From Actinomycetota bacterium (lineage in GTDB: Bacteria; Actinomycetota; Geothermincolia; Geothermincolales; RBG-13-55-18), in contig JACIXB010000011.1 in the NCBI GenBank assembly GCA_014360685.1, positions 195,261 to 259,260 on the forward strand: a stretch of DNA of 64,000 nt, read 5' to 3'. The translations under genes and the position numbers were made by a program. The notes beneath the pieces are model-generated. The model was not told the DNA's origin, did no database searches, and saw nothing but the letters and a program-made list of their open reading frames with translations. Shown piece by piece: positions 14,554 to 33,710 of this stretch (positions within the stretch are counted from its first letter, which is position 1; each line of letters opens with the position of its first letter).

Positions 14554-15720
14554 TCAATCCTTGCCGGGGCCGGTGCGGCCGGAGAGGAGGCCCTGCGCGC
14601 TTTCCAACTCCTTCCCGTTGCCGAAATCGGCGGTGGTGAGCATGCCCTCCGGCTTCCCGGCGATGAAGTCCTCCACCATCTGGCGGGCGACGTCGTCGGA
14701 GTACTGCACCGGGGGGGACTTCATGAAATAGGAGGACGGGCCGATCAGGGCCCCCGAAAGCCCGCGGTCCATGGCCAGTTTGCAGCAACGCACGGCGTCG
14801 ATGACGATGCCGGCGGAATTGGGGGAGTCCCAGACCTCCAGCTTGAATTCAAGGGAGACGGGGACATCCCCGAACTCCCGTCCCTCCAGCCGGATATAGG
14901 CCCATTTACGGTCGTTGAGCCAGGCCACGTAGTCGCTGGGGCCGATGTGCACGTCGTCTTTGTCGATGCTGTGGTTGAGCTGAGAGACCACGGCGTCGGT
15001 CTTGGAGACCTTCTTGGATTCCAGTCTTTCGCGTTCCAGCATGTTCATGAAATCCATGTTTCCGCCGATGTTGAGTTGGGCGGTGCGGTCCAGGACCACC
15101 CCGCGGTCGTTGAAGAGCTTGGCCAGCACGCGGTGCACGATGGTCGCCCCGACCTGCGACTTGATGTCGTCTCCCACGATGGGGAGCCCATGGCGGCGGA
15201 AGCGGCCCTGCCAGATCTCCTCCCGGGCCACGAAGACGGGGATGCAGTTCACGACCCCGCAGCCTGCCTTGAGGGCTTCTTCCACGTAGAAGTGGGTGGC
15301 TTTCTCGCTTCCCACCGGAAGATAGTTGACCACCACGTCCACCTGGTGCCGAGACAGGACCTCGGCCACGTTCACCGGATCCGAGGGATGTTCCTTCGAT
15401 ACCTGGCGATAGTATTTCCCGAAACCGTCCAGGGTGGGGCCGCGGTAAACCGGGGCCCCGAGGGGCGGCACGTCGCTTATCTTGATGGTGTTGTTCCTCC
15501 CACGGAAGATGGCCTCGGAGACGTCCCGGCCCACCTTGTCCGCGTCCACGTCGAAGGCGCAAACGATCTCGATGTCCCGGATGTGGTAGGGTCCGATGCT
15601 CACGTGCATGAGGCCCGGGACCAGGTCGCCTTCCCGGGCATCGCGGTAGTACTGGATGCCCTGGACCAGGGAAGAGGCGCAGTTGCCCACGCCTATGATG
15701 GCCGTCCTTACCTTTCCCAT
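14554..15720 (-). CDS. ino1: myo-Inositol-1-phosphate synthase
   Basis: '[14 protein letters not shown]', 'NYLPVGS', '[13 protein letters not shown]', 'LNIGGNMDF' are typical of bacterial/archaeal MIPS. SD GGGAGG lies upstream. Confidence 0.92.
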
Positions 15721-15795
15721 ATGCTCAACCTCCCTAACTCCCTATATTCATATCCCACCGGGGATGTGCTTTGCTCCTCTCCGACGCCCCGGCCT

Positions 15796-16425
15796 TCAGG
15801 CCTGTATGGGCGTGGCCTTCTCCAGCGACTCTCCGTCCAGCAGCAATTTCTCACCCCCCTTCTCCCCCTTTCTCGGGGAACCCCTTCCCCGTTCCTTTTC
15901 CAGTAAATATTTCCTCTCCTGCTCTATGAGCTCGTCCAGCCACCGGATGTCGCTGCGGAGCAGTTCCTGGCGGTGCCGGTAGAGCCCCAGGCGATAACTG
16001 TCCGACTCCTTGTAACGGGATTTCCCCGCCCCGGCCATCTCCTCGAGCTTCTCGGCGAGGTAGCCGCGGCGTTTCTCGAGCAGCCAGAGCCTCAATTCGG
16101 GTTCCATGTACTGGAAAAAAGCCAGCCGCAGGCTGAACTTGTCGGAATCGGTGATCTCCGAGGACTTTCCGGTTTCCTCCAGCAACTGGCGGAACATCTC
16201 CTCCCCCTTGGGGGTGATCCGGTAGACGTAGCGATTACGGGCCTTTTCCTTCACCGTGTAGGCCCTCTCCACGGCATCCTTGGCCTCCAGGCGCTTGAGG
16301 GCCGGGTAGAGGGAGCCGAAGCTTATCTTCCACAGGTGCCCCAGGAGGAAGGAGAGGCGCTTCTTGAGCTCGTACCCGTGCATGGGTTTTTCCTTGAGCG
16401 CTCCCAGTATGGCCAGTTCGAGCAC
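15796..16425 (-). CDS. PadR-family transcriptional regulator (long form)
   Basis: 'LAILGALKEKPMHGYELKKRL...GSLYPALKRLEAKDAV' winged HTH. GTG start with AAGGAGAGGA upstream. Confidence 0.85.
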   Translation of the reverse strand: MLELAILGALKEKPMHGYELKKRLSFLLGHLWKISFGSLYPALKRLEAKDAVERAYTVKEKARNRYVYRITPKGEEMFRQLLEETGKSSEITDSDKFSLRLAFFQYMEPELRLWLLEKRRGYLAEKLEEMAGAGKSRYKESDSYRLGLYRHRQELLRSDIRWLDELIEQERKYLLEKERGRGSPRKGEKGGEKLLLDGESLEKATPIQA

Positions 16426-21058: not shown

Positions 21059-21922
21059 ATGCTCATCGCGGCCAGGGAAGCTGACGTGGGCGTGGTGAAC
21101 ACCGGGAAGCGGGGAAATCCGCCGGATGCCCCCTATTTCGCCCTGGAGATGGAGCCCGGGGATTCCGGCGGGCCGGTGTTCGCAGCCGCGGTTTGTTCCG
21201 AGGGAGAGACCCCCGAGGAACTGGAGATCCGGCGTTATGCAATGGGCCTCCTGCACGAGTTCTTCCGCCGGCGGGAGGAGGTGGTGAGATCCACGGACTA
21301 CCGGGTTGTCCTGCGCAACTCCCTGCGCCACATCCACCGCCACATCGTGGAACGCCACGGCGAAAGCGGTCTCGGGTTGGACTTCCTTTTGGTGCTGGCC
21401 GATGCGCAGCGGATTTACGCCGCCCGCTGCGGGGAGAACGCCCTTTTCGTGCACAGCGGGGAGGAGACCGCCGCCCTTTTCGGCGGGTGGGAGGGAGAGG
21501 GCGGGCTTCTGGGCGACGCGGCGGGGGAGAGGATAGAGTTGGGCGAGGCGCCGGTGCACCCGGGTGACGTGGTGGTTCTGTGCAACCCCCCGGTGGCCCG
21601 GGTCATGGGGGCGCGGGACGTGGGAGTCATCCTCAGGAGGGCCCGCGATTCCCGCAAGGCCGCACTCTTCCTCTCCGCCATCGCCGAGAGGAAGGGTGCC
21701 CGGGGCACGATGGTGGCCCTGGTCTGGGAGATGCCCAATTACCGGGGCGCGGCCATGCTCGCCGAGGAGGAGGCACAGGGGGAAGAAGCCGCGGCTTCCG
21801 GAGTTCCCTCGGAAGAAAAGGGTGAAGCGGAGGAGGAAAAAGAAGCTTTCGGGGAAGAAGAACCCGCCGACAAGGCCAGGAGGCAATGGCTTAGCAAGTG
21901 GCGCCGGCGCAAGGAGGAATAA
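21059..21922 (+). CDS. Hypothetical protein with a degenerate PP2C-like core and an acidic/lysine-rich tail
   Basis: Loose PP2C-like order ('FLLVLADAQRIYAARCGENALFV', 'GDVVVLCN', 'GTMVALVWE') but no clear DGxGG metal motif. The tail is Glu/Lys rich. Confidence 0.4.
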   Translation: MLIAAREADVGVVNTGKRGNPPDAPYFALEMEPGDSGGPVFAAAVCSEGETPEELEIRRYAMGLLHEFFRRREEVVRSTDYRVVLRNSLRHIHRHIVERHGESGLGLDFLLVLADAQRIYAARCGENALFVHSGEETAALFGGWEGEGGLLGDAAGERIELGEAPVHPGDVVVLCNPPVARVMGARDVGVILRRARDSRKAALFLSAIAERKGARGTMVALVWEMPNYRGAAMLAEEEAQGEEAAASGVPSEEKGEAEEEKEAFGEEEPADKARRQWLSKWRRRKEE

Positions 21923-21937
21923 TCCGACCTTTCCCGG

Positions 21938-23236
21938 TTATTTTCTCTTCTCCCACTTTTCCAGGTAGGCCACCTGGGAAAGTGTGGAACCGGCCTCGAT
22001 CTCGCCGCGTAGGCGGTTCTCTTTCTCCAGGACGTCCATGGCCCGGTTGGCCATCTCCACCACCTTGTCGCGCGGTATAACCACCACCCCGTCGTCGTCC
22101 CCCACCAGCCAATCGCCCGGGAAGATCCTCCTCCCCCCCACGGTCACCGGCACGTTTATCTCCCCGAAGCCTTTGGGCTCACCGGCTGTGGGGGTGATTA
22201 AGCGGGAGAAGGAAGGGAAGTGGAGCCGCCTTATCTCCACCGTGTCCCGGATGGCCCCGTCGATGACCACCCCGGCCAGTTTTCTCTGGATGGCGCTGTG
22301 GGTGGCCAACTCCCCCCACAGGGCCGGCCCCACCCCGCCGGCGTCGATGACGATGACGTCCCCCTCCTCGGCCACGTCGATGGCCTCCACCGGCTTGGCC
22401 CAATCGCCGGGGTAGGCCCTCACGGTCACCGCCGGGCCGGCCATCTTCATCCCCGGGCTGATGGGCAGGATGCCCTCCAGTTCCCCGGAGCGGTGCATGG
22501 CGTCGGATAGGTTGGGGGTGGATACCTTGAGGAGGACCTCCCGCACGTTCTCCAGGCTGACGCGCTTGTACAGGTCGGTCTTCACCGCTTGGCCGGTGAG
22601 CATGGCCCGCTTGATCTCCTCCGCGGCGCGCCTGGCGTCCTTACTCTTGATGATGGCCCCGCCCACGATGACGATGTCCGCCCCGCTCTCTACCGCCTGC
22701 GCCGCCGTCTCCGAGTTTATGCCCCCGGCGACGGCCACCGGGATGCTCACCGAGTTGGCCACCAGCCGCAGGCGCTCGAAGGGGTCCAAGCCCCGCATCT
22801 GCATGTCGATGGCCGTGTGCACGGCGATGTAGTGGGCGCCCGCCGCCTCCGCCGCCCGCGCCCGGTCCACGGGGTCTCCCACCTCGATGAGGTCGACCAC
22901 TATCTCCGCCCCGTAGTTGTTGGCCGCCTCCACGCACTCCTTCACCGTGGCGTCCGAGGCGGCCCCCAGGACGTCGATGATGTTGGCGCCGGCCTTGGCC
23001 GCGGCCTCCACCTCCGCCCTCCCGGCGTCCATGGTCTTCATGTCCGCCACGATGACGTGGTGGGGGAATCGCTCCCGGAGGGCCCGGACGGCGTTCAGCC
23101 CCTCGCTCTTGATGAGGGGGGTGCCGGCCTCTATCCAGTCGGCGCCGCCGGCGACGGCCTCCTCGGCGACCTTGATGGCCCTCTCCAGGTCCACGAAGTC
23201 CAGGGCCACCTGCAGGATGGGTCCTTTTATCCTCAT
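21938..23236 (-). CDS. Fusion protein: 3-hexulose-6-phosphate synthase (OMPDC-family) N-domain plus RraA/HMG-aldolase-like C-domain
   Basis: N-domain: 'LQVALDF', 'IEAGTPLIK', 'VADMKTMDAG', 'VAGGI'. C-domain: 'GDVIVIDAGG...ALWGELATHSAIQRKLAGVVIDGAIRD' (RraA-family core). Confidence 0.8.
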   Translation of the reverse strand: MRIKGPILQVALDFVDLERAIKVAEEAVAGGADWIEAGTPLIKSEGLNAVRALRERFPHHVIVADMKTMDAGRAEVEAAAKAGANIIDVLGAASDATVKECVEAANNYGAEIVVDLIEVGDPVDRARAAEAAGAHYIAVHTAIDMQMRGLDPFERLRLVANSVSIPVAVAGGINSETAAQAVESGADIVIVGGAIIKSKDARRAAEEIKRAMLTGQAVKTDLYKRVSLENVREVLLKVSTPNLSDAMHRSGELEGILPISPGMKMAGPAVTVRAYPGDWAKPVEAIDVAEEGDVIVIDAGGVGPALWGELATHSAIQRKLAGVVIDGAIRDTVEIRRLHFPSFSRLITPTAGEPKGFGEINVPVTVGGRRIFPGDWLVGDDDGVVVIPRDKVVEMANRAMDVLEKENRLRGEIEAGSTLSQVAYLEKWEKRK

Positions 23237-26223: not shown

Positions 26224-26321
26224 AGCCGCCGAGTGAAGAACGTGCGCAACGATAACGGCTTCCCGGTCCCGGTGTCAGGATCCCGCGGGGTCGGGAGGGG
26301 CGTGATCGGCGGGAGGTGGAG

Positions 26322-27524
26322 ATGAAGTTCGTCGTCCTGGTGCCGGACGGCGCCGCCGACCATCCGGTGGCCGGCCGCGGCGGCGTCACGCCGCTGGAAG
26401 CGGCCAGCCTGCCCAACATGGACTTCCTGGCCGAGAACGGGATCTGCGGCACGGCGGTCACCGTGCCGGAAGGGATGCCGGCGGGAAGCGATGTTGCCAA
26501 TTTTTCCCTCCTGGGCTATGACCCCAAGGAATATTACTGCGGTCGCGGACCGCTGGAAGCGGCCAGCATGGGGGTGCACCTCTCGGCGGACCAGGTGGCT
26601 TTCCGCTGCAACCTGGTGACCGAGGAGGAAGGCCGGCTGGTCGATTACAGCGCCGGCCACATAACCAACCAGGAGGCCCGCAGGCTGATCCGCTTCCTGG
26701 ACGACAAGCTGGGGGATCACTATACCGCTTTCCACCCCGGGGTGGGATACAGGCACCTCCTCGTCCTGCGGGGACTGAAGCATCTGGAAGACGTCTGCGT
26801 CCCTCCTCACGACGTGGTGGGTCGGCGGATCGAAGAGATCCTCCCCCGGGGTCCGGGCTCGGAACGGTTGCGCTCCCTGATCAGGCTTTCCCGGCGGTTG
26901 CTGGATGGCCACCCCGTGAACTGGTGGCGCAGGGAACGCGGGCTGCGGCCGGCGAACATGATATGGCCCTGGGGGCAAGGGCGATCGCCGCAACTCCCGA
27001 CCCTGAGGGAGAAGTACGGCCTTTCCGGAGCGGTTATCACCGCCGTGGACCTGGTCAAGGGCCTGGGCCTCCTCGCCGGGATGGAGGTGGTGAACGTCCC
27101 CGGCGCCACGGGTTATTACGATACCGATTACGAGGCCAAGGCCCGCTACGCCCTTCATGCCCTGAGGAGGGTGGACCTTGTGTACGTGCACGTGGAGGCT
27201 CCCGACGAGGCGGGACACGAGGGCGACTGGGAAGCCAAGGTAGAGGCCCTGGAGAACTTCGACCGCCATGTCGTGGGCGCCGTTCTCGACGAATCGGTCC
27301 GCCTGCACGAGGAGTTCCACATCCTGCTGGCGCCCGATCACCCCACCCCCTTGGAAGTGAGGACCCACGTCCCGGAGCCGGTGCCCTTCGCCCTCTACTT
27401 GGCGGGAGAGAAACACGACGCGGCACGTGCCTTCAACGAACGCGAGGCCTTGAACGGAAGCTACCGGGACATCCCGGCATGGGAACTCATGGACATGCTG
27501 GTCAGGGGGGGATCCGGCCGGTAA
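26322..27524 (+). CDS. ApgM-type (archaeal-form) cofactor-independent phosphoglycerate-mutase-like alkaline-phosphatase-superfamily protein; possible alternative homoserine kinase
   Basis: 'KFVVLVPDGAADHP', 'TPLE.A..PNMD', 'GSDVANFSLLGYDP', 'VHVEAPDEAGHEGD'. ATG at 26322 follows GGGAGG. Confidence 0.8.
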   Translation: MKFVVLVPDGAADHPVAGRGGVTPLEAASLPNMDFLAENGICGTAVTVPEGMPAGSDVANFSLLGYDPKEYYCGRGPLEAASMGVHLSADQVAFRCNLVTEEEGRLVDYSAGHITNQEARRLIRFLDDKLGDHYTAFHPGVGYRHLLVLRGLKHLEDVCVPPHDVVGRRIEEILPRGPGSERLRSLIRLSRRLLDGHPVNWWRRERGLRPANMIWPWGQGRSPQLPTLREKYGLSGAVITAVDLVKGLGLLAGMEVVNVPGATGYYDTDYEAKARYALHALRRVDLVYVHVEAPDEAGHEGDWEAKVEALENFDRHVVGAVLDESVRLHEEFHILLAPDHPTPLEVRTHVPEPVPFALYLAGEKHDAARAFNEREALNGSYRDIPAWELMDMLVRGGSGR

Positions 27525-27623: not shown

Positions 27624-28454
27624 GTGTCGAAGTTGTCGTCGAAGACCTATCCGGTCAAGAAATCTCCGGTGGTGGTGGCCCACATATCCGACTTCCATAT
27701 CGGGTCCTACCACTTCGTGGCCAACCTCATGAACCGCACCATTCACGAGCTCAACGAGCTGCGCCCGGATATCGTGGTGGTTACCGGGGACCTGACCAAC
27801 GAAGGATTCCGGCAGGAATACCTGACCGCCAAGTCCTACCTGGACAACCTGGAATGCGAGAACATAGTCGTCGTTCCGGGAAACCACGATTCCCGCAACG
27901 TGGGGTACCTCCACTTCCAGGAGCTCTTTGGCCCCCTCTTCCGTTGCCTGGAATACGAGGGGGTCTTCATCATGGGAGTGGATTCCAGCGAGCCGGACCT
28001 CGACGACGGCAAGATAGGCCGCGAGAAATACGGGTGGATTGTGAATAGTTTCCAATCCACGGAGGCTTTCAAGATCTTCGCCCTGCACCACCACCTGCTG
28101 CCCGTCCCGGGAACCGGGAGGGAGCGCAACATCGTCTATGATGCCGGGGACATCCTCGAGTTGCTGATATACGCCGGGGTGGATCTCGTGCTCACCGGCC
28201 ACAAGCACGTCCCTTACGTGTGGAGGCTGGAGGACATGTACCTGGTGAACGCCGGGACCATATCCTCCCTACGCTTGCGGGGCCATACCAAGCCCTGCTA
28301 TAACCTTATCGAAATCCGCGAGAACGACGTGAGGGTCCTCCGCAAGTACCCCTTCGGGGGAAGCGACGTCATCGCCCGGTTCGGAGCCGGGGCGGGAGAG
28401 ACCCAGCGGGAACTGTCCGGTGTGGCCCGGGAGATAATAGGGACGGATATCTGA
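27624..28454 (+). CDS. Calcineurin-like metallophosphoesterase
   Basis: 'VAHISDFHIG', 'VVVTGDLTNEG', 'VVVPGNHD', 'FALHHHLLP', 'LVLTGHKH'. GTG at 27624 preferred; ORF-track TTG at 27540 overlaps a TATAAT-like box. Confidence 0.75.
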   Translation: MSKLSSKTYPVKKSPVVVAHISDFHIGSYHFVANLMNRTIHELNELRPDIVVVTGDLTNEGFRQEYLTAKSYLDNLECENIVVVPGNHDSRNVGYLHFQELFGPLFRCLEYEGVFIMGVDSSEPDLDDGKIGREKYGWIVNSFQSTEAFKIFALHHHLLPVPGTGRERNIVYDAGDILELLIYAGVDLVLTGHKHVPYVWRLEDMYLVNAGTISSLRLRGHTKPCYNLIEIRENDVRVLRKYPFGGSDVIARFGAGAGETQRELSGVAREIIGTDI

Positions 28455-28870
28455 GGCCCTGGCACTTTGACCGACTGCCGTGGATGCCGGACAGGCGGCC
28501 CGGCCGGGTATAAGTACTCGAGAAGCATGATTCCCGGTACGGGGAAAAGAACTTCACGCCCCTTCCCTCGCCATAGGACGGCCTGAGAGAAAGCCGCCGG
28601 GGCCCCTTTCGGCAGTCGCGGAAGGTCATGCGGCGGAAGGACCCGGGTGGGGAAGAACTTGGACCGGAACCGGTTTCACACTCGGGCCGCGTCCCTGGAA
28701 GCCTGCCGAGCGCGGTCGAGGACGAGTCGCGGCTTCCCTCGGAAAGACCGTCGAGAACGTGTCGCTGCGGGGTCAGGCGGTCTCCGCCCGCCGGATGGCA
28801 GGCGGAAAGCATCGTAAAACGGTGGGGGTACACGAGCCGCTTAGTCGGTGTTGCTGTTGGGGTGGAGGCG

Positions 28871-30199
28871 ATGAGAAGAGCCCTTTTCCTGGTGGACGGC
28901 GAACACCATCCCTCGACCATCCTGGATGCCGTGCTCCAGCTGGAGGAAGTAGAGGGTCTGTTGCCGGTGGGCCTTTTCTTCCTGGGCGGCACGGAGAAGA
29001 TGCCCGACCTCGATGCCCTCGCCTCGCCGCGCTGGGAACTGGTGGTGGCCGGCGATCTCCCCGCCGGGCTGGCCGCCTGCGTCGACCGGCTGAACCCGGA
29101 GGTGGTGGTGGACCTGAGCGACCTTCCGGTGCTGGATGCGGGGACCAGGTTCTCGCTGGCCTCCGTGGCCTTGGCCCGCGGGGCGACCTACCGCGGAGCG
29201 GATTTCGAGTTCCGTCCTCCCCGCCGGGAGAGGATACTGACCGGGCCATCCTGCGCGGTCATCGGCACCGGAAAGCGGTGCGGCAAGACGGCGGTATCCG
29301 CGGAGATGGCCCGCTGCCTGAGCGAATGGGGCTACCGTACGGTGGTGGTGGCCATGGGACGGGGCGGCCCGCCGGAGCCCTACCTGGTGGACGGGAGAGG
29401 CGTCGACGGGGCCTTCCTCCTCGGCGAGCTTTCCAAGGGCTTCCATGCCGCCTCGGATCATTACGAGGACGCCCTGGTCACCGGGTTGACCACCGTGGGC
29501 TCGCGCCGTTGCGGCGGCGGCATGGCCGGGCAGCCATTCGTCACCAACTGCGCGGAGGCGGCCCGCCTGGCGGAGAGCCTGGGGATGGACGCCGTGATCA
29601 TGGAGGGGAGCGGCTCCAGCATCCCTCCCGTGGAGACACGGGGCGCCGTATGCGTGATCAGCGCCGCCCAGGACCCGAGGGATGCCCTGGAGTACCTCGG
29701 CCCATACCGCGTCTTGATTTCGGACGGGGTTGTAATTACAATGGCAGAGGAACCTTTCGCTGATCCCCGCCGAGTGTCATCGTTGCGCGAAAGGATAAAG
29801 CGTATAAAGGACGAGATATTAACCATAGAGACGGTTTTCAGGCCTCATCCCTTGAAACCCATAGGCGGAAAGAAAGTGTTCCTTGCCGCGACCGCTCCGC
29901 CCGAGGCGGGGGACGTTTTGCGGGATTACCTGGAGGAGAAAACGGGTTGCAGGGTGGCGGGGATGAGCTTTAATCTCAACGATCGCAGGGCGTTGAGGCG
30001 GGAGCTGGAGGAGGCGCGGGACGCCGAGGTCTTCCTGACCGAGCTCAAGGCCGCCGCCGTGGATACGGTGGCCAGGTACGCGGAGGAGACGGGAAGGGAA
30101 GTGGTCTACTTCCACAATCTTCCGATCCCGGCGCGTCCGGGAGAGAGGTTGGAGGACTTCTTCCGCGCCGTCTGGGAAAGGGTGCTGGAGAGGACATGA
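28871..30199 (+). CDS. cpgS: Cyclic 2,3-diphosphoglycerate synthetase-like protein (P-loop family)
   Basis: 'AVIGTGKRCGKTAVSAEMA', 'VVVAMGRGGPPEP', about 440 aa. ATG at 28871 follows GGTGGAGG. Family call is from memory of the methanogen enzymes and was not searched. Confidence 0.65.
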   Translation: MRRALFLVDGEHHPSTILDAVLQLEEVEGLLPVGLFFLGGTEKMPDLDALASPRWELVVAGDLPAGLAACVDRLNPEVVVDLSDLPVLDAGTRFSLASVALARGATYRGADFEFRPPRRERILTGPSCAVIGTGKRCGKTAVSAEMARCLSEWGYRTVVVAMGRGGPPEPYLVDGRGVDGAFLLGELSKGFHAASDHYEDALVTGLTTVGSRRCGGGMAGQPFVTNCAEAARLAESLGMDAVIMEGSGSSIPPVETRGAVCVISAAQDPRDALEYLGPYRVLISDGVVITMAEEPFADPRRVSSLRERIKRIKDEILTIETVFRPHPLKPIGGKKVFLAATAPPEAGDVLRDYLEEKTGCRVAGMSFNLNDRRALRRELEEARDAEVFLTELKAAAVDTVARYAEETGREVVYFHNLPIPARPGERLEDFFRAVWERVLERT

Positions 30200-31155
30200 A
30201 GGAAAAAGAGGAGGAGAGCGCCAAGAGGATAACCGTCCTCGACGAGGAACAACACCGGGTGCCCTTTTCCAAGGGGCTGACGGCCAACGCCATCATGGCC
30301 TCCGGCCTGGCGCCGGGCCCTGCTTACCTGGTGGCCGCGGAGATCGAGGAGCTCCTCGTACGGGAGGGAAGGCTGGAAGTCAAGATCCGCGAGCTGCACG
30401 GCATCATCTACGATACCCTTTTAAAGAGGGCGGGCAAGAAGCACGCGGAGAACTATTCCAGGTACATAAGTTTCAGCCGCTTGAACAAGCCGCTGGTGGT
30501 GCTCATCGGCGGTTCGACGGGGGTGGGAAAATCCACCATCGCCACCATGATCGCCAACCGCCTGAGCATCGTGCGCATCGTGTCCACGGACGCCATACGG
30601 GAGGTCATGCGGGCCTTCTTCTCCCGGGAGCTCATGCCCACCATCCACACCTCCTCCTTCGACGCGGACACGGCCCTCATACATCCCCTGCCGCCGCACG
30701 TGGACCCGGTGGTGGCCGGGTTTCGGGAGCAGAGCCTGTCCGTCCTGGTGGGGGTGAGGGCGATCATAAAGCGGGCCCTGAACGAGGGAACGCACATCAT
30801 CATCGAGGGGGCGCACATCGTCCCGGGATTCATAGCCCCGGAACAGTTCCCGGAGGCCTTCATCGTGCCCCTGGTGATCAAGGTTTCCGACGAGAGGATG
30901 CACAAGGACCACCTTTACGTGAGGGGGGTGGAGACGCAGGGCACGCGCCCCTTCCAGCGCTATATCAAGCACTTCGAGAACATCAGGAAGATCCAGGATT
31001 ACATCCTCCATATGTCCGACATCACCGGTGTGAAAACGGTGGAATGCGTTGACCTGGACACCACCGTCTCCGAGGTGGTGGAATACATAATCAACTCCGC
31101 CTACGATATGGCCCGCAGGGAGAAGCTGCTGGTGGAGGCGGGGAACATCGTCTGA
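30196..31155 (+). CDS. 2-Phosphoglycerate kinase-like protein (ATP-cone-like N-terminus plus P-loop kinase)
   Basis: 'ITVLDEE..RVPFSKG' N-domain, Walker A 'LIGGSTGVGKSTIA', 'IVSTDAIREVMR', 'IIEGAHIVPG'. ATGA overlap with the upstream gene. Confidence 0.72.
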   Translation: MKEKEEESAKRITVLDEEQHRVPFSKGLTANAIMASGLAPGPAYLVAAEIEELLVREGRLEVKIRELHGIIYDTLLKRAGKKHAENYSRYISFSRLNKPLVVLIGGSTGVGKSTIATMIANRLSIVRIVSTDAIREVMRAFFSRELMPTIHTSSFDADTALIHPLPPHVDPVVAGFREQSLSVLVGVRAIIKRALNEGTHIIIEGAHIVPGFIAPEQFPEAFIVPLVIKVSDERMHKDHLYVRGVETQGTRPFQRYIKHFENIRKIQDYILHMSDITGVKTVECVDLDTTVSEVVEYIINSAYDMARREKLLVEAGNIV

Positions 31156-31329: not shown

Positions 31330-31977
31330 ATGAAACTTTTCCTGGACACGGCCAACGTGGAGCACATCAGGGAGATCAACGAGTGGGGGGTTCTTTCCGG
31401 GGTGACCACCAACCCCTCGCTGGTCTCCAGGGAAGGGCGCGCCATGCGGGAAGTTTTGGAAGAGATTACCAGAATAGTCAAGGGGCCGGTGAGCGCGGAA
31501 GCGGTAAGTCAGGACGCGGAAGGCATGGTTAGGGAGGCCCGGGAGCTGGCCTCCATCGCCGAGAACATAAACGTCAAGATACCCATGACCCCTCAAGGGC
31601 TGGCGGCGGTCAGCCGATTAAGCAGGGAGGGGATCAAGACCAACGTCACCCTGGTCTTTTCCGCCAACCAGGCCCTTCTGGCCGCCGCAGCGGGTGCCAC
31701 TTTCGTCAGTCCCTTCGTAGGGCGTTTGGACGACATCGGCAATAACGGCATGGCCGTGGTGGAGGAGATCGTGGATATCTTCGACACCTACGACATCCCC
31801 ACGCTGGTCATCGCCGCCAGCCTGAGGCACCCCATGCACGTGGTACAGGCGGCCCGGGCCGGCGCGCACATAGCCACCATCCCCTACGAGGTGATGGTCA
31901 AGATGGTGAAGCACCCGCTGACGGATATAGGGATAAGGAAATTCCTGGAGGACTATGAAAAGATCAGGAACCTTTGA
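31330..31977 (+). CDS. tal: Short-form transaldolase / fructose-6-phosphate aldolase
   Basis: 'KLFLDTANV', 'GVTTNPSL', Schiff-base Lys 'NVKIP', 'TNVTLVFS', '[11 protein letters not shown]'; 215 aa. Confidence 0.9.
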
Positions 31978-32039: not shown

Positions 32040-33305
32040 TTGGAACAGACGCTGGACAGAGCCAAGCTGGAGTCCATGCTCCTGGTGGACCTCCAGAGCA
32101 TGGCCCGGGAAATGGGCATGACCGGCATCACCGGCATGCGCAAGCAGGAGCTCATCGAGAGTATCCTGAGCCGCCGGGTCGAGGAGGAAGGCCTTTTCAT
32201 CCGCACCGGGATCCTGGATATCCTTCCCGAGGGCTACGGCTTCCTGCGTACCAGGGGCTACCTCCCCAGCGAGGACGACATCTACGTGTCCCTCTCGCAG
32301 ATAAGGCGCTTCCACCTCAAGAGGGGCGACGAGATCCAGGGGCAGGTGAGGCCGCCGAAGGACAGCGAGAAGTACAACGCCCTCCTGCGCATCGAGAAGG
32401 TCAACGGCGACAACCCCGAGGTCTGCCGGGAGCGTAAGCAGTTCGAGCAACTTACACCCCTCTTCCCCCTGGAGAGGCTCCGCCTGGAGACCCCCAACGG
32501 GGAGGTGGCGCCGCGCATCATCGACCTCATCGCGCCCATCGGCAAGGGCCAGAGGGGGCTCATCGTGTCGCCTCCCAAGGCGGGCAAGACCACCATCCTT
32601 AAGCAGATAGCCAACAGCATCACCCACAACAACCCCGAGGTGAAGCTGATCGTGCTCCTGGTGGACGAGCGTCCCGAGGAGGTCACGGACATGGAGCGCT
32701 CGGTGAAGGGGGAGGTTATAAGCTCCACCTTCGACCAGCCCTCCGACAACCACATCCAGGTAGCGGAACTGGTGCTGGAGAGGGCCAAGCGGCTGGTGGA
32801 ACACAACCACGACGTGGTGATCCTCCTGGACAGCATCACCCGCCTGGCCAGGGCCTACAACCTGGCCACGCCCACCAGCGGGAGGATCCTCTCCGGTGGC
32901 GTGGACTCCACGGCCCTCTACCCGCCCAAGAGATTCTTCGGGGCGGCGCGCAACATAGAGGACGGTGGCAGCCTCACCATCATAGCCACCGCTCTGGTGG
33001 AGACCGGTTCCCGCATGGACGAGGTCATCTTCGAGGAATTCAAGGGCACCGGCAACATGGAACTGCACCTGGACCGCAAGCTGGCCGACAAGCGCATCTT
33101 CCCGGCCATCGAGATAGATAAGTCCGGGACCCGCAAGGAAGAGCTGATCATGGAACCGGAGGAAGCCCAGGTGGTCTGGAAGCTCCGCCGCGTCCTGCAT
33201 GCCCTGGACCCCAGCGCGGCCATTGAGCTGCTCATAGACAAGATTCGCAGCACCAGGAACAACCAGGAGTTCCTGAACGAGATAGCCAGGTCGCCCATCT
33301 CCTGA
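32040..33305 (+). CDS. rho: Transcription termination factor Rho
   Basis: N-terminal '[11 protein letters not shown]....RKQELI', RNA-binding 'GFLR...YLPS..DIYVS', Walker A '[11 protein letters not shown]', 'LVDERPEEV'. TTG start after AAGGAGGTG. Confidence 0.95.
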
Positions 33306-33710
33306 TCCGGGCCTGGGGGCGGCCGTTTTCCCTCGACCGTCGCCGGCCGGATGGACCCCGGATCTTTCCTTCCGGGAAGACAGGCGAAGACCTTGGAGGG
33401 GGAAAGGGGGCGTTTTTGCGCCCCTTCCCGCCCGGGAAGGTCGGTGCGCGGGTAGGTGGTCCGCCGGTGCCCGGCCACGCTTGGATGGCGGGCGTGCGAG
33501 TTTCCCAGCCGGGAGGTCGGCGGAGGGTGGGCGCCGTTACGCCGGTGCGGTCTCCGGTTGCCGGGGCGGGCGGCCCCGGCGTCCGGGAGGGCCGGCCACC
33601 GAAGGGGAGAGGACGACCCCCCCTTCCCGCAGGCGCTTCCGCTCCTGTTCAAGCGCGGCGGGCATTGCTATACTTTATGGGTCGTGGGATTAATAGGGAG
33701 GACGCCGAGG

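Follow-up and report, generated by a model that had tools for sequence, protein, structure and literature searches.

A 64,000-nucleotide (nt) stretch of DNA from an actinobacterium of the class Geothermincolia (hereafter the window, to which all coordinates given without a locus label refer) contains two overlapping genes, cpgS and 2pgk, whose products resemble the two enzymes with which methanogens synthesize the heat-protective solute cyclic 2,3-diphosphoglycerate (cDPG), namely cDPG synthetase and 2-phosphoglycerate kinase (2PGK). The original prediction, made from the letters of the sequence, recognized these two genes, and that part of it stands, but it overlooked a conserved partner, a metallophosphoesterase gene located upstream of the pair. 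The core of the locus comprises the following features:

27633..28454, plus strand: metallophosphoesterase, 273 amino acids (aa), with a TTG/CTG-type start as called in locus L001; Pfam Metallophos PF00149
28455..28870, unstranded: non-coding spacer between the metallophosphoesterase gene and cpgS
28871..30199, plus strand: cpgS (open reading frame (ORF) A), encoding a cDPG synthetase orthologue of 442 aa; ATG start at 28871, stop codon ending at 30199
30196..30199, plus strand: ATGA overlap of the cpgS stop and the 2pgk start, read directly in the sequence; translational coupling
30196..31155, plus strand: 2pgk (ORF B), 319 aa; ATG start at 30196, stop codon ending at 31155; N-terminal ATP-cone and then a P-loop kinase domain

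The reading frames, the overlap and the peptides that had been quoted from them were all located as claimed, with IGTGKRCGKTAVS and AMGRGGPPEP present in ORF A and GGSTGVGKSTIA in ORF B. Judging by the E-values of their matches (2e-106 to a solved cDPG synthetase and 1.5e-90 to a 2PGK model), neither is a chance ORF. The 4-nt overlap is also kept in two related genomes, L083 and L086, in which cpgS is, respectively, 95 % and 83 % identical to the window gene. A longer in-frame ORF of 523 aa that opens at 28628 was rejected as the true start of cpgS because the homologues begin at the position of MRRALFLVDGEHH and because the 416 nt upstream of the gene are not conserved: compared to L083, this region contains a frame-breaking indel of 2 nt, and no alignment was possible with L086 or L087. 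In other lineages, the gap between the metallophosphoesterase gene and cpgS is only 0-26 nt. An Rfam scan of the 416-nt spacer yielded sub-threshold noise and no family at threshold, so that, given also the lack of sequence conservation and the indel, a regulatory RNA was rejected. A scan of the spacer for promoters and terminators showed no significant pattern, with two promoter-like sites against 0.8 expected and no terminators.

The membership of ORF A in the cDPG synthetase family, originally proposed from its peptides, is confirmed by a full-length match. In a search of the Protein Data Bank (PDB) sequences with phmmer, ORF A matched the crystallised cDPG synthetase of Methanothermus fervidus (8ORU/8ORK) with an E-value of 2.1e-106; residues 3-421 align to residues 5-433 of the M. 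fervidus chain at ~44 % identity, and the C-terminal ~20 residues of ORF A are unalignable. The local Pfam/NCBIfam scan of ORF A, with a Pfam copy that lacked the CpgS_N model, detected a sub-threshold P-loop and no match above threshold; PF27272 CpgS_N is the precomputed Pfam domain listed for this exact protein and for its homologues. The M. fervidus enzyme (De Rose et al. 2023, PMC10690619) is likewise built of two domains, CpgS_N and a P-loop core, and its published ligands of 2,3-diphosphoglycerate (2,3-DPG), Mg2+ and ADP are E45 and K46 (both from the partner subunit), K145, R146, K149, T150, D208, E305, P335, T353, E404 and K406. All these residues are invariant in an alignment of nine sequences that includes the M. 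fervidus enzyme. In the numbering of the window protein, K135, R136, K139 and T140 belong to the Walker A motif or P-loop (GxxGxGK[T/S]), which reads GTGKRCGKT in ORF A and is shared with M. fervidus as GTGKRxGKT, whereas E42, K43, D196, E293, P325, T341, E391 and K393 lie outside it. No catalytic residue is lost in this alignment. By these sequence criteria, ORF A qualifies as a secure full-length orthologue of cDPG synthetase. Unlike the M. fervidus enzyme, it has a bacterial host, shares an operon with 2pgk, with a metallophosphoesterase gene ahead, and has a predicted activity; the cpgS loci of Methanobacteriaceae, in contrast to the window, have neither 2pgk nor the metallophosphoesterase as a neighbour. 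Another PDB entry, 9sxb, looks like a further archaeal cDPG synthetase.

The synthetase family is widespread. In a pattern search that covered one genome per GTDB species, relatives were found to be encoded in at least 575 species representatives from many bacterial and archaeal phyla; furthermore, 5988 proteins with E < 1e-10 were detected in a 90 % cluster database and 557 in a 50 % representative library. The best 80 of the at least 575 loci, on which the neighbourhood counts are based, come from Actinomycetota (Solincola, Geothermincola, Aquicultor, Rubrobacter, Thermoleophilia, Gaiellales, Acidimicrobiia, Euzebyaceae and Coriobacteriia-type metagenome-assembled genomes (MAGs)), from other bacteria (Bacillota, Anaerolineae and others) and from archaea (Methanobacteriaceae, Thermoplasmata, haloarchaea, Aenigmatarchaeota and Methanolliviera). 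Many MAG proteins are labelled '2,3-diphosphoglycerate synthetase' at NCBI, and Rubrobacter xylanophilus DSM 9941 carries an annotated copy. The bacterial presence of the genes is already recorded in databases (NCBI, JGI, Pfam CpgS_N) and so is not new.

The product of the second gene combines an ATP-cone (27.3 bits in Pfam, cut-off 25.8, residues 14-93) with a following P-loop kinase domain in which the P-loop, GGSTGVGKST, occupies residues 105-114; this architecture is common to the M. fervidus 2PGK (NCBIfam NF003259 / PRK04220). The NF003259 model covers ORF B from model position 7 to 300 of 306, with 303.7 bits and an E-value of 1.5e-90. The two best NCBIfam models are both 2PGK, followed by paralogue models at 154 bits and 95 bits, the latter for mevalonate-3-phosphate 5-kinase. 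A 2pgk homologue adjoins cpgS in 54 of the 80 loci, in both domains of life, and among these 54 cpgS-linked copies, of which 11 are archaeal, conservation reaches at least 95 % in the P-loop (G105-T114) and at several Arg and His positions. ORF B is 93 % identical to a protein of 'Ca. Solincola tengchongensis', and a bacterial homologue is labelled 2PGK at JGI. With 2PGK as the best family, an ATP-cone above its cut-off and coupling to cpgS, the initial description of ORF B as an ATP-cone and P-loop protein of the 2PGK type holds, and for both proteins the top matches fall inside the expected families. The sequence supports the identification of ORF B as a 2PGK-family kinase, the specific assignment resting on the linkage to cpgS rather than on the score.

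The metallophosphoesterase (PF00149 score 67.3, cut-off 21.5) retains all metal-ligand motifs of its superfamily in invariant form: D20-x-H22, G52-D53, G83-N84-H85-D86, H152-H154 and G189-H190-x-H192. A profile scan of the 80 loci placed it beside cpgS in 53, archaeal loci included, in two gene orders. In 42 loci, a single-domain protein is encoded directly upstream of cpgS, usually at a distance of 0-26 nt, whereas in the other 11 a double-length (~510 aa) protein is encoded directly after 2pgk. The double-length copies are found in Thermoplasmata, Natronoplasma, Saliniplasma, Aenigmatarchaeota and several MAGs labelled bacterial, some of them from the same sample series. They are represented by L019 9623-11158, after cpgS-2pgk, with equivalents in L024, L028, L033, L036, L043, L061, L075, L077, L080 and L081. 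In the L019 protein, the sole double-length copy aligned, metal ligands and subfamily motifs are both present in the first half; the second half is a degenerate copy devoid of ligands. The MAGs labelled Brocadiia, Aminicenantes, Bradymonadales and Eubacteriales that carry the double-length gene cluster with the Thermoplasmata copies, which points either to gene transfer in a common habitat or to contigs placed in the wrong genome bin. Moreover, three out of three metallophosphoesterase orthologues picked irrespective of cpgS sat immediately upstream of cpgS (L088-L090). In the flanks of the 80 loci, the metallophosphoesterase was not seen near cpgS in haloarchaea, Bacillota or Methanobacteriaceae.

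Across classes, these metallophosphoesterases are 56-84 % identical and more conserved than cpgS, and share specific invariants, common also to the archaeal copy, namely the motifs DSSxPDxD (within DSSEPDLD) and GRERN (within PGTGRERN) and the arginines R88, R163, R165 and R216. A structure model (predicted local distance difference test 81.5, predicted template modelling (TM) score 0.85) is confident except in the two signature loops, which have low confidence and presumably are mobile. The nearest solved structures are those of GpdQ from Enterobacter aerogenes and Rv0805 from M. tuberculosis, class III metallophosphodiesterases with the same fold and the same motifs DxH, GD, GNHD, H and GHxH (E 1e-10 by sequence, TM ~0.6 by fold); the window protein differs from both by the extra invariant loops DSSEPDLD and PGTGRERN and is only 20-23 % identical to them. 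Sequence and fold searches with the metallophosphoesterase returned generic superfamily relatives (GpdQ, Rv0805 and, at lower identity, purple acid phosphatases) and no functional clue, and the database names are merely 'metallophosphoesterase' or 'Icc/CpdA'. On sequence grounds, the proteins with the DSSxPDxD/GRERN loops form a separate subfamily.

The module is embedded in a housekeeping block, in which two further genes recur downstream of it:

31330..31977, plus strand: fsa, fructose-6-phosphate aldolase / transaldolase (TIGR00875, 327 bits)
32040..33305, plus strand: rho, with Pfam Rho_N, Rho_RNA_bind and ATP-synt_ab; anchor of the housekeeping block

Along the window, lysA precedes, in this order, an hps-rraA fusion (minus strand), hom, thrC, an ApgM-like gene, the metallophosphoesterase gene, cpgS, 2pgk, fsa, rho, rpmE, DUF1385, prfA and prmC, with clpC, a radA-like gene and disA further downstream, so that the bacterial context ascribed to the pair from the outset is verified. 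The flanking proteins are 90-99 % identical to those of 'Candidatus Solincola quzhuomuensis', rho reaching 99 %, and the window organism is a member of Geothermincolia close to 'Candidatus Solincola'. Hot springs are the source of the Ca. Solincola MAGs (class Geothermincolia); one such spring has a temperature of 55 C, and the genome G+C content is 63.4 % (2026 genome paper), compared to 64.9 % in the window. The cDPG genes are not mentioned in that paper. The classical actinobacterial arrangement is lysA-hom-thrC-thrB-rho-rpmE-prfA, whereas the window has extra genes between the thr operon and rho. The order hom-thrC-...-metallophosphoesterase-cpgS-2pgk-fsa-rho is kept in Geothermincolia, Aquicultor, Thermoleophilia, Gaiellales, Euzebyaceae and Coriobacteriia-type MAGs, and fsa lies between 2pgk and rho in about two dozen actinobacterial-type loci. 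In the Aquicultor-type loci (L088-L090), the genes from a glycosidase or the phosphoesterase to rho are directly adjacent or share a few bases, and fsa has 4-nt overlaps with its neighbours in L089 and L090. Rubrobacter has the order argS-metallophosphoesterase-cpgS-rho, with neither 2pgk nor fsa adjacent (L017 6180-8314, a Rubrobacteraceae chromosome, and other Rubrobacter loci).

Taken together, these observations are most readily accommodated by a functional, vertically inherited cpgS-2pgk pair that probably makes cDPG and belongs to a three-gene module with the metallophosphoesterase. We infer the substrates, the product, the physiological role and the function of the phosphoesterase from the homologies and the gene order, as follows. 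The ATP-cone/P-loop kinase would phosphorylate 2-phosphoglycerate (2-PG) to 2,3-DPG, and the synthetase would spend a second ATP to close an intramolecular phosphoanhydride (2,3-DPG + ATP -> cDPG + ADP + Pi). The metallophosphoesterase (27633-28454) could provide the turnover arm, by cleaving the phosphoanhydride bond in cDPG or removing a phosphate from 2,3-DPG, and the cell would keep a pool of cDPG as a polyanionic protective solute and as a store of carbon, phosphate and energy. Such an assignment corresponds to an alternative already voiced in the original prediction, an unrecognised bacterial compatible-solute or phosphate-storage system, which is the reading we favour.

Several lines of evidence weigh against this interpretation. 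The score of ORF B is below both curated equivalog cut-offs for 2PGK (303.7 against 343 for NF003259, the model that represents the M. fervidus enzyme, and 296.5 against 603 for NF008994); its family includes enzymes with other substrates, such as mevalonate-3-phosphate 5-kinase; and its identity to the kinases linked to cpgS in archaea is just 32-36 %. NCBI recognises only half of the pathway, because the kinase is named there 'ATP cone domain-containing' or 'zeta toxin family' protein, without any reference to 2PGK. In Methanobacteriaceae, for which cDPG hydrolase activity has been measured, a scan of the cpgS flanks out to 7 kb detected no orthologue of the phosphoesterase, and co-translation of a synthetase with its own hydrolase would potentially be futile unless regulated. 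Many of the carriers are not thermophiles, and for that reason a purely thermoprotective role of cDPG is unlikely. To our knowledge, nuclear magnetic resonance surveys of the solutes of Rubrobacter xylanophilus did not report cDPG. The searchable literature that names the synthetase concerns archaea only, in agreement with the initial remark that cDPG is undemonstrated in bacteria, and in it no bacterium has been shown to contain the compound; according to the 2023 structural study (PMC10690619), cDPG is found exclusively in hyperthermophilic methanogens.

Some of the same observations would fit a pair that is functional but yields a product other than cDPG, with the kinase acting on a different phospho-acid, its product being turned into another compound by the synthetase and the phosphoesterase, and the latter serving as the final-step phosphatase, as in other solute pathways (cf. 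MPGS/MPGP, TPS/TPP). The sub-cut-off scores of a kinase from a functionally diverse family and the absence of bacterial cDPG from the searchable literature are compatible with such a pathway, and the tight coupling of the phosphoesterase upstream of cpgS (0-26 nt) suits enzymes that work in the same direction. However, the bacterial proteins show no change at any residue that contacts 2,3-DPG, Mg2+ or the nucleotide in the M. fervidus structure, the kinase scores far better with 2PGK (304 bits) than with the paralogues (95-154), and Rubrobacter keeps the metallophosphoesterase-cpgS arrangement without an adjacent kinase. On balance, we regard a different product as unlikely.

The recent acquisition of a methanogen gene pair by a bacterium, as the locus was first framed, is highly improbable. 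It draws some support from the fact that the only biochemically characterised members of the family are methanogen enzymes. However, in a neighbour-joining tree of 82 sequences with 100 bootstraps, the window cpgS groups with Solincola and Geothermincola (100/100), and the Methanobacteriales sequences, including M. fervidus, form their own clade without it (100/100); the archaeal nesting that a transfer from archaea would predict was not found. The label 'methanogen-type' is likewise inappropriate for a family that is present in at least 575 species representatives of many phyla and whose window copy lies outside the Methanobacteriales clade. Identity of the window cpgS to the Methanobacteriales sequences (39-44 %) is no higher than to those of Rubrobacter (43-46 %) or of the Thermoplasmata/haloarchaeal group (41-44 %). 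Neither gene is atypical in composition: the G+C content of third codon positions (GC3) is 0.81 for cpgS and 0.87 for 2pgk, compared to 0.81-0.92 for the neighbours, and the codon-usage distances are in the neighbours' range. The synonymous divergence (dS) of cpgS and 2pgk from L083 and L086 is equal to that of the flanking genes, and the identical insertion site and gene order, in the slot between the thr operon and rho, recur across several classes of Actinomycetota. Furthermore, cpgS is solitary in Methanobacteriaceae, and therefore there is no donor-like operon. On the strength of GC3, codon usage, dS, the tree and synteny, recent horizontal transfer was rejected. The deep branches of the tree are short and the branching order among them is unresolved, which leaves room for an ancient inter-domain transfer; such an event is possible in either direction. 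The simplest reading of the sequences is a long vertical residence of the module in Actinomycetota.

The genes of the module all evolve under purifying selection. The ratio of nonsynonymous to synonymous divergence (dN/dS) in the comparison with L083 and L086, respectively, is 0.23 and 0.21 for cpgS, 0.15 and 0.09 for 2pgk, and 0.09 and 0.03 for the metallophosphoesterase gene. The window cpgS is only 69 % identical to that of Ca. Solincola quzhuomuensis (L008 4350-5663), whereas identities of 90-99 % are found for hom, thrC, the phosphoesterase, fsa and rho on either side. Because of this disparity and the highest dN/dS in the block (0.21-0.23), we conclude that cpgS evolves unusually fast in the genus, with all ligand residues kept. 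A decaying relic without current function, which the same high dN/dS and low identity might be taken to indicate, can be practically dismissed, given that a dN/dS of 0.21-0.23, on which pseudogenisation was rejected, still reflects clear purifying selection, that the reading frames are intact in every relative examined, and that all catalytic residues are kept.

Within the favoured interpretation, a functional pair that makes cDPG, the part played by the metallophosphoesterase is less firmly constrained. We lean towards the view that it is tied to the cDPG pathway at all, whereas its specific identification as the cDPG hydrolase is tentative. This candidacy is based on the linkage to cpgS in two gene orders and on the invariant arginines, which, we infer from the sequence, would suit a polyanionic substrate with a charge of -3 to -5. 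Hydrolysis of pyrophosphate bonds is common in the metallophosphoesterase superfamily, as exemplified by LpxH, ApaH and the ADP-ribose/CDP-alcohol hydrolases. We know of no gene assigned to cDPG hydrolase activity. The hydrolytic arm does exist biochemically: PMC1224877, citing Sastry et al. 1992 and van Alebeek et al. 1994, describes cDPG hydrolase activities in Methanothermobacter thermautotrophicus, one of them inhibited by K+ and phosphate. The window phosphoesterase would be a plausible gene-level candidate for this arm, with the difference that one of the M. thermautotrophicus activities is membrane-bound and the window protein has no obvious membrane segment. Pairing of a synthetase with a hydrolase would mirror the ppk-ppx operon of E. 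coli, in which ppx accompanies ppk and the synthase and hydrolase of a phosphoanhydride store are encoded together; the analogy is purely conceptual because the proteins are unrelated and the store is a polymer as opposed to a cyclic monomer. Extending the argument, the subfamily could consist of cDPG/2,3-DPG hydrolases, and a full make-and-break cycle would have been in place between the thr operon and rho already in the ancestor of Actinomycetota and lost in the class Actinomycetes; we consider this scenario doubtful.

At this locus, homology, intact catalytic residues, purifying selection, conserved synteny and the lack of any sign of recent transfer are established, and bacterial cDPG can be considered a well-founded prediction from sequence. 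In deep-branching Actinomycetota, the genes are intact, under selection and of ancient standing within a housekeeping block, in contrast to the methanogen-only view of the literature; they also occur in Thermoplasmata, haloarchaea and other phyla, many members of which are not thermophiles. Previously unreported are the conservation of the phosphoesterase and the constant location of the module in the thr-rho block. If confirmed as the product, cDPG would be a general microbial solute or phosphate-energy store, the culturable Rubrobacter would offer an easy test organism for bacterial cDPG, and the bacterial enzymes could be used to produce this extremolyte. Should the phosphoesterase, a concrete candidate for the hydrolase activity described in 1992-94, indeed act as proposed, cDPG would be a widespread bacterial and archaeal phosphagen or solute and not a methanogen speciality.

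Several other features of the window and of the related loci deserve mention. Those in the window are:

14554-16425, minus strand: myo-inositol-1-phosphate synthase gene, adjoining a PadR-family regulator
21059-21922, plus strand: conserved ORF of 287 aa between lysA and hps-rraA, with no Pfam or NCBIfam match
21938-23236, minus strand: hps-rraA fusion, in which an RraA-like domain is joined to 3-hexulose-6-phosphate synthase (601.8 bits with the equivalog NF005442, cut-off 593)
26316..27524, plus strand: ApgM-like metalloenzyme, which passes both NF003242 iPGM (545 bits) and TIGR02535 'proposed homoserine kinase' (534.1 > 446.3)

The ApgM-like gene follows hom-thrC. It was assigned to the thr operon because a canonical GHMP thrB holds the same position after thrC in the Aquicultor-type loci L088-L090, and for the same reason its role as a supplier of 2-PG was rejected. 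Most likely, judging from its sequence, it encodes the alternative homoserine kinase of the operon, the assignment being ambiguous given that both models are passed. Its presence at this slot would seem to be a natural and clear-cut instance of non-orthologous displacement of thrB.

In the Aquicultor-type loci, a gene for a glycoside hydrolase of ~740 aa is located between thrB and metallophosphoesterase-cpgS-2pgk-fsa-rho (L088 2540-4771, L089 2767-5004, L090 2741-4963). The protein contains GDE_C and MGH1-like domains (a mannosylglycerate-hydrolase-like family), and in L089 its stop overlaps the start of the phosphoesterase gene by 4 nt. It may represent a second gene for a glycerate-based solute beside the cDPG module.

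The spacer between rho and rpmE (33306-33710, plus strand) is ~400 nt long, and is as long in L083 and L086, compared to only 23-55 nt in the Aquicultor-type loci. It contains a sub-threshold match to the Rfam family RNaseP_nuc at 33379-33489 (23 bits, threshold 28), and may be a structured leader or a mere G+C-rich artefact. Because no di-myo-inositol-phosphate synthase was seen near the myo-inositol-1-phosphate synthase gene, the latter probably serves the synthesis of inositol lipids or thiols rather than that of a second thermoprotective solute. The hps-rraA fusion, which encodes an enzyme of the ribulose-monophosphate pathway, keeps the same position in Geothermincolia-type loci; enzymes of the 3-hexulose-6-phosphate synthase/RraA type are typical of archaea. 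Finally, the 287-aa ORF is present in L083 and L086, where it evolves under purifying selection (dN/dS 0.13-0.15).

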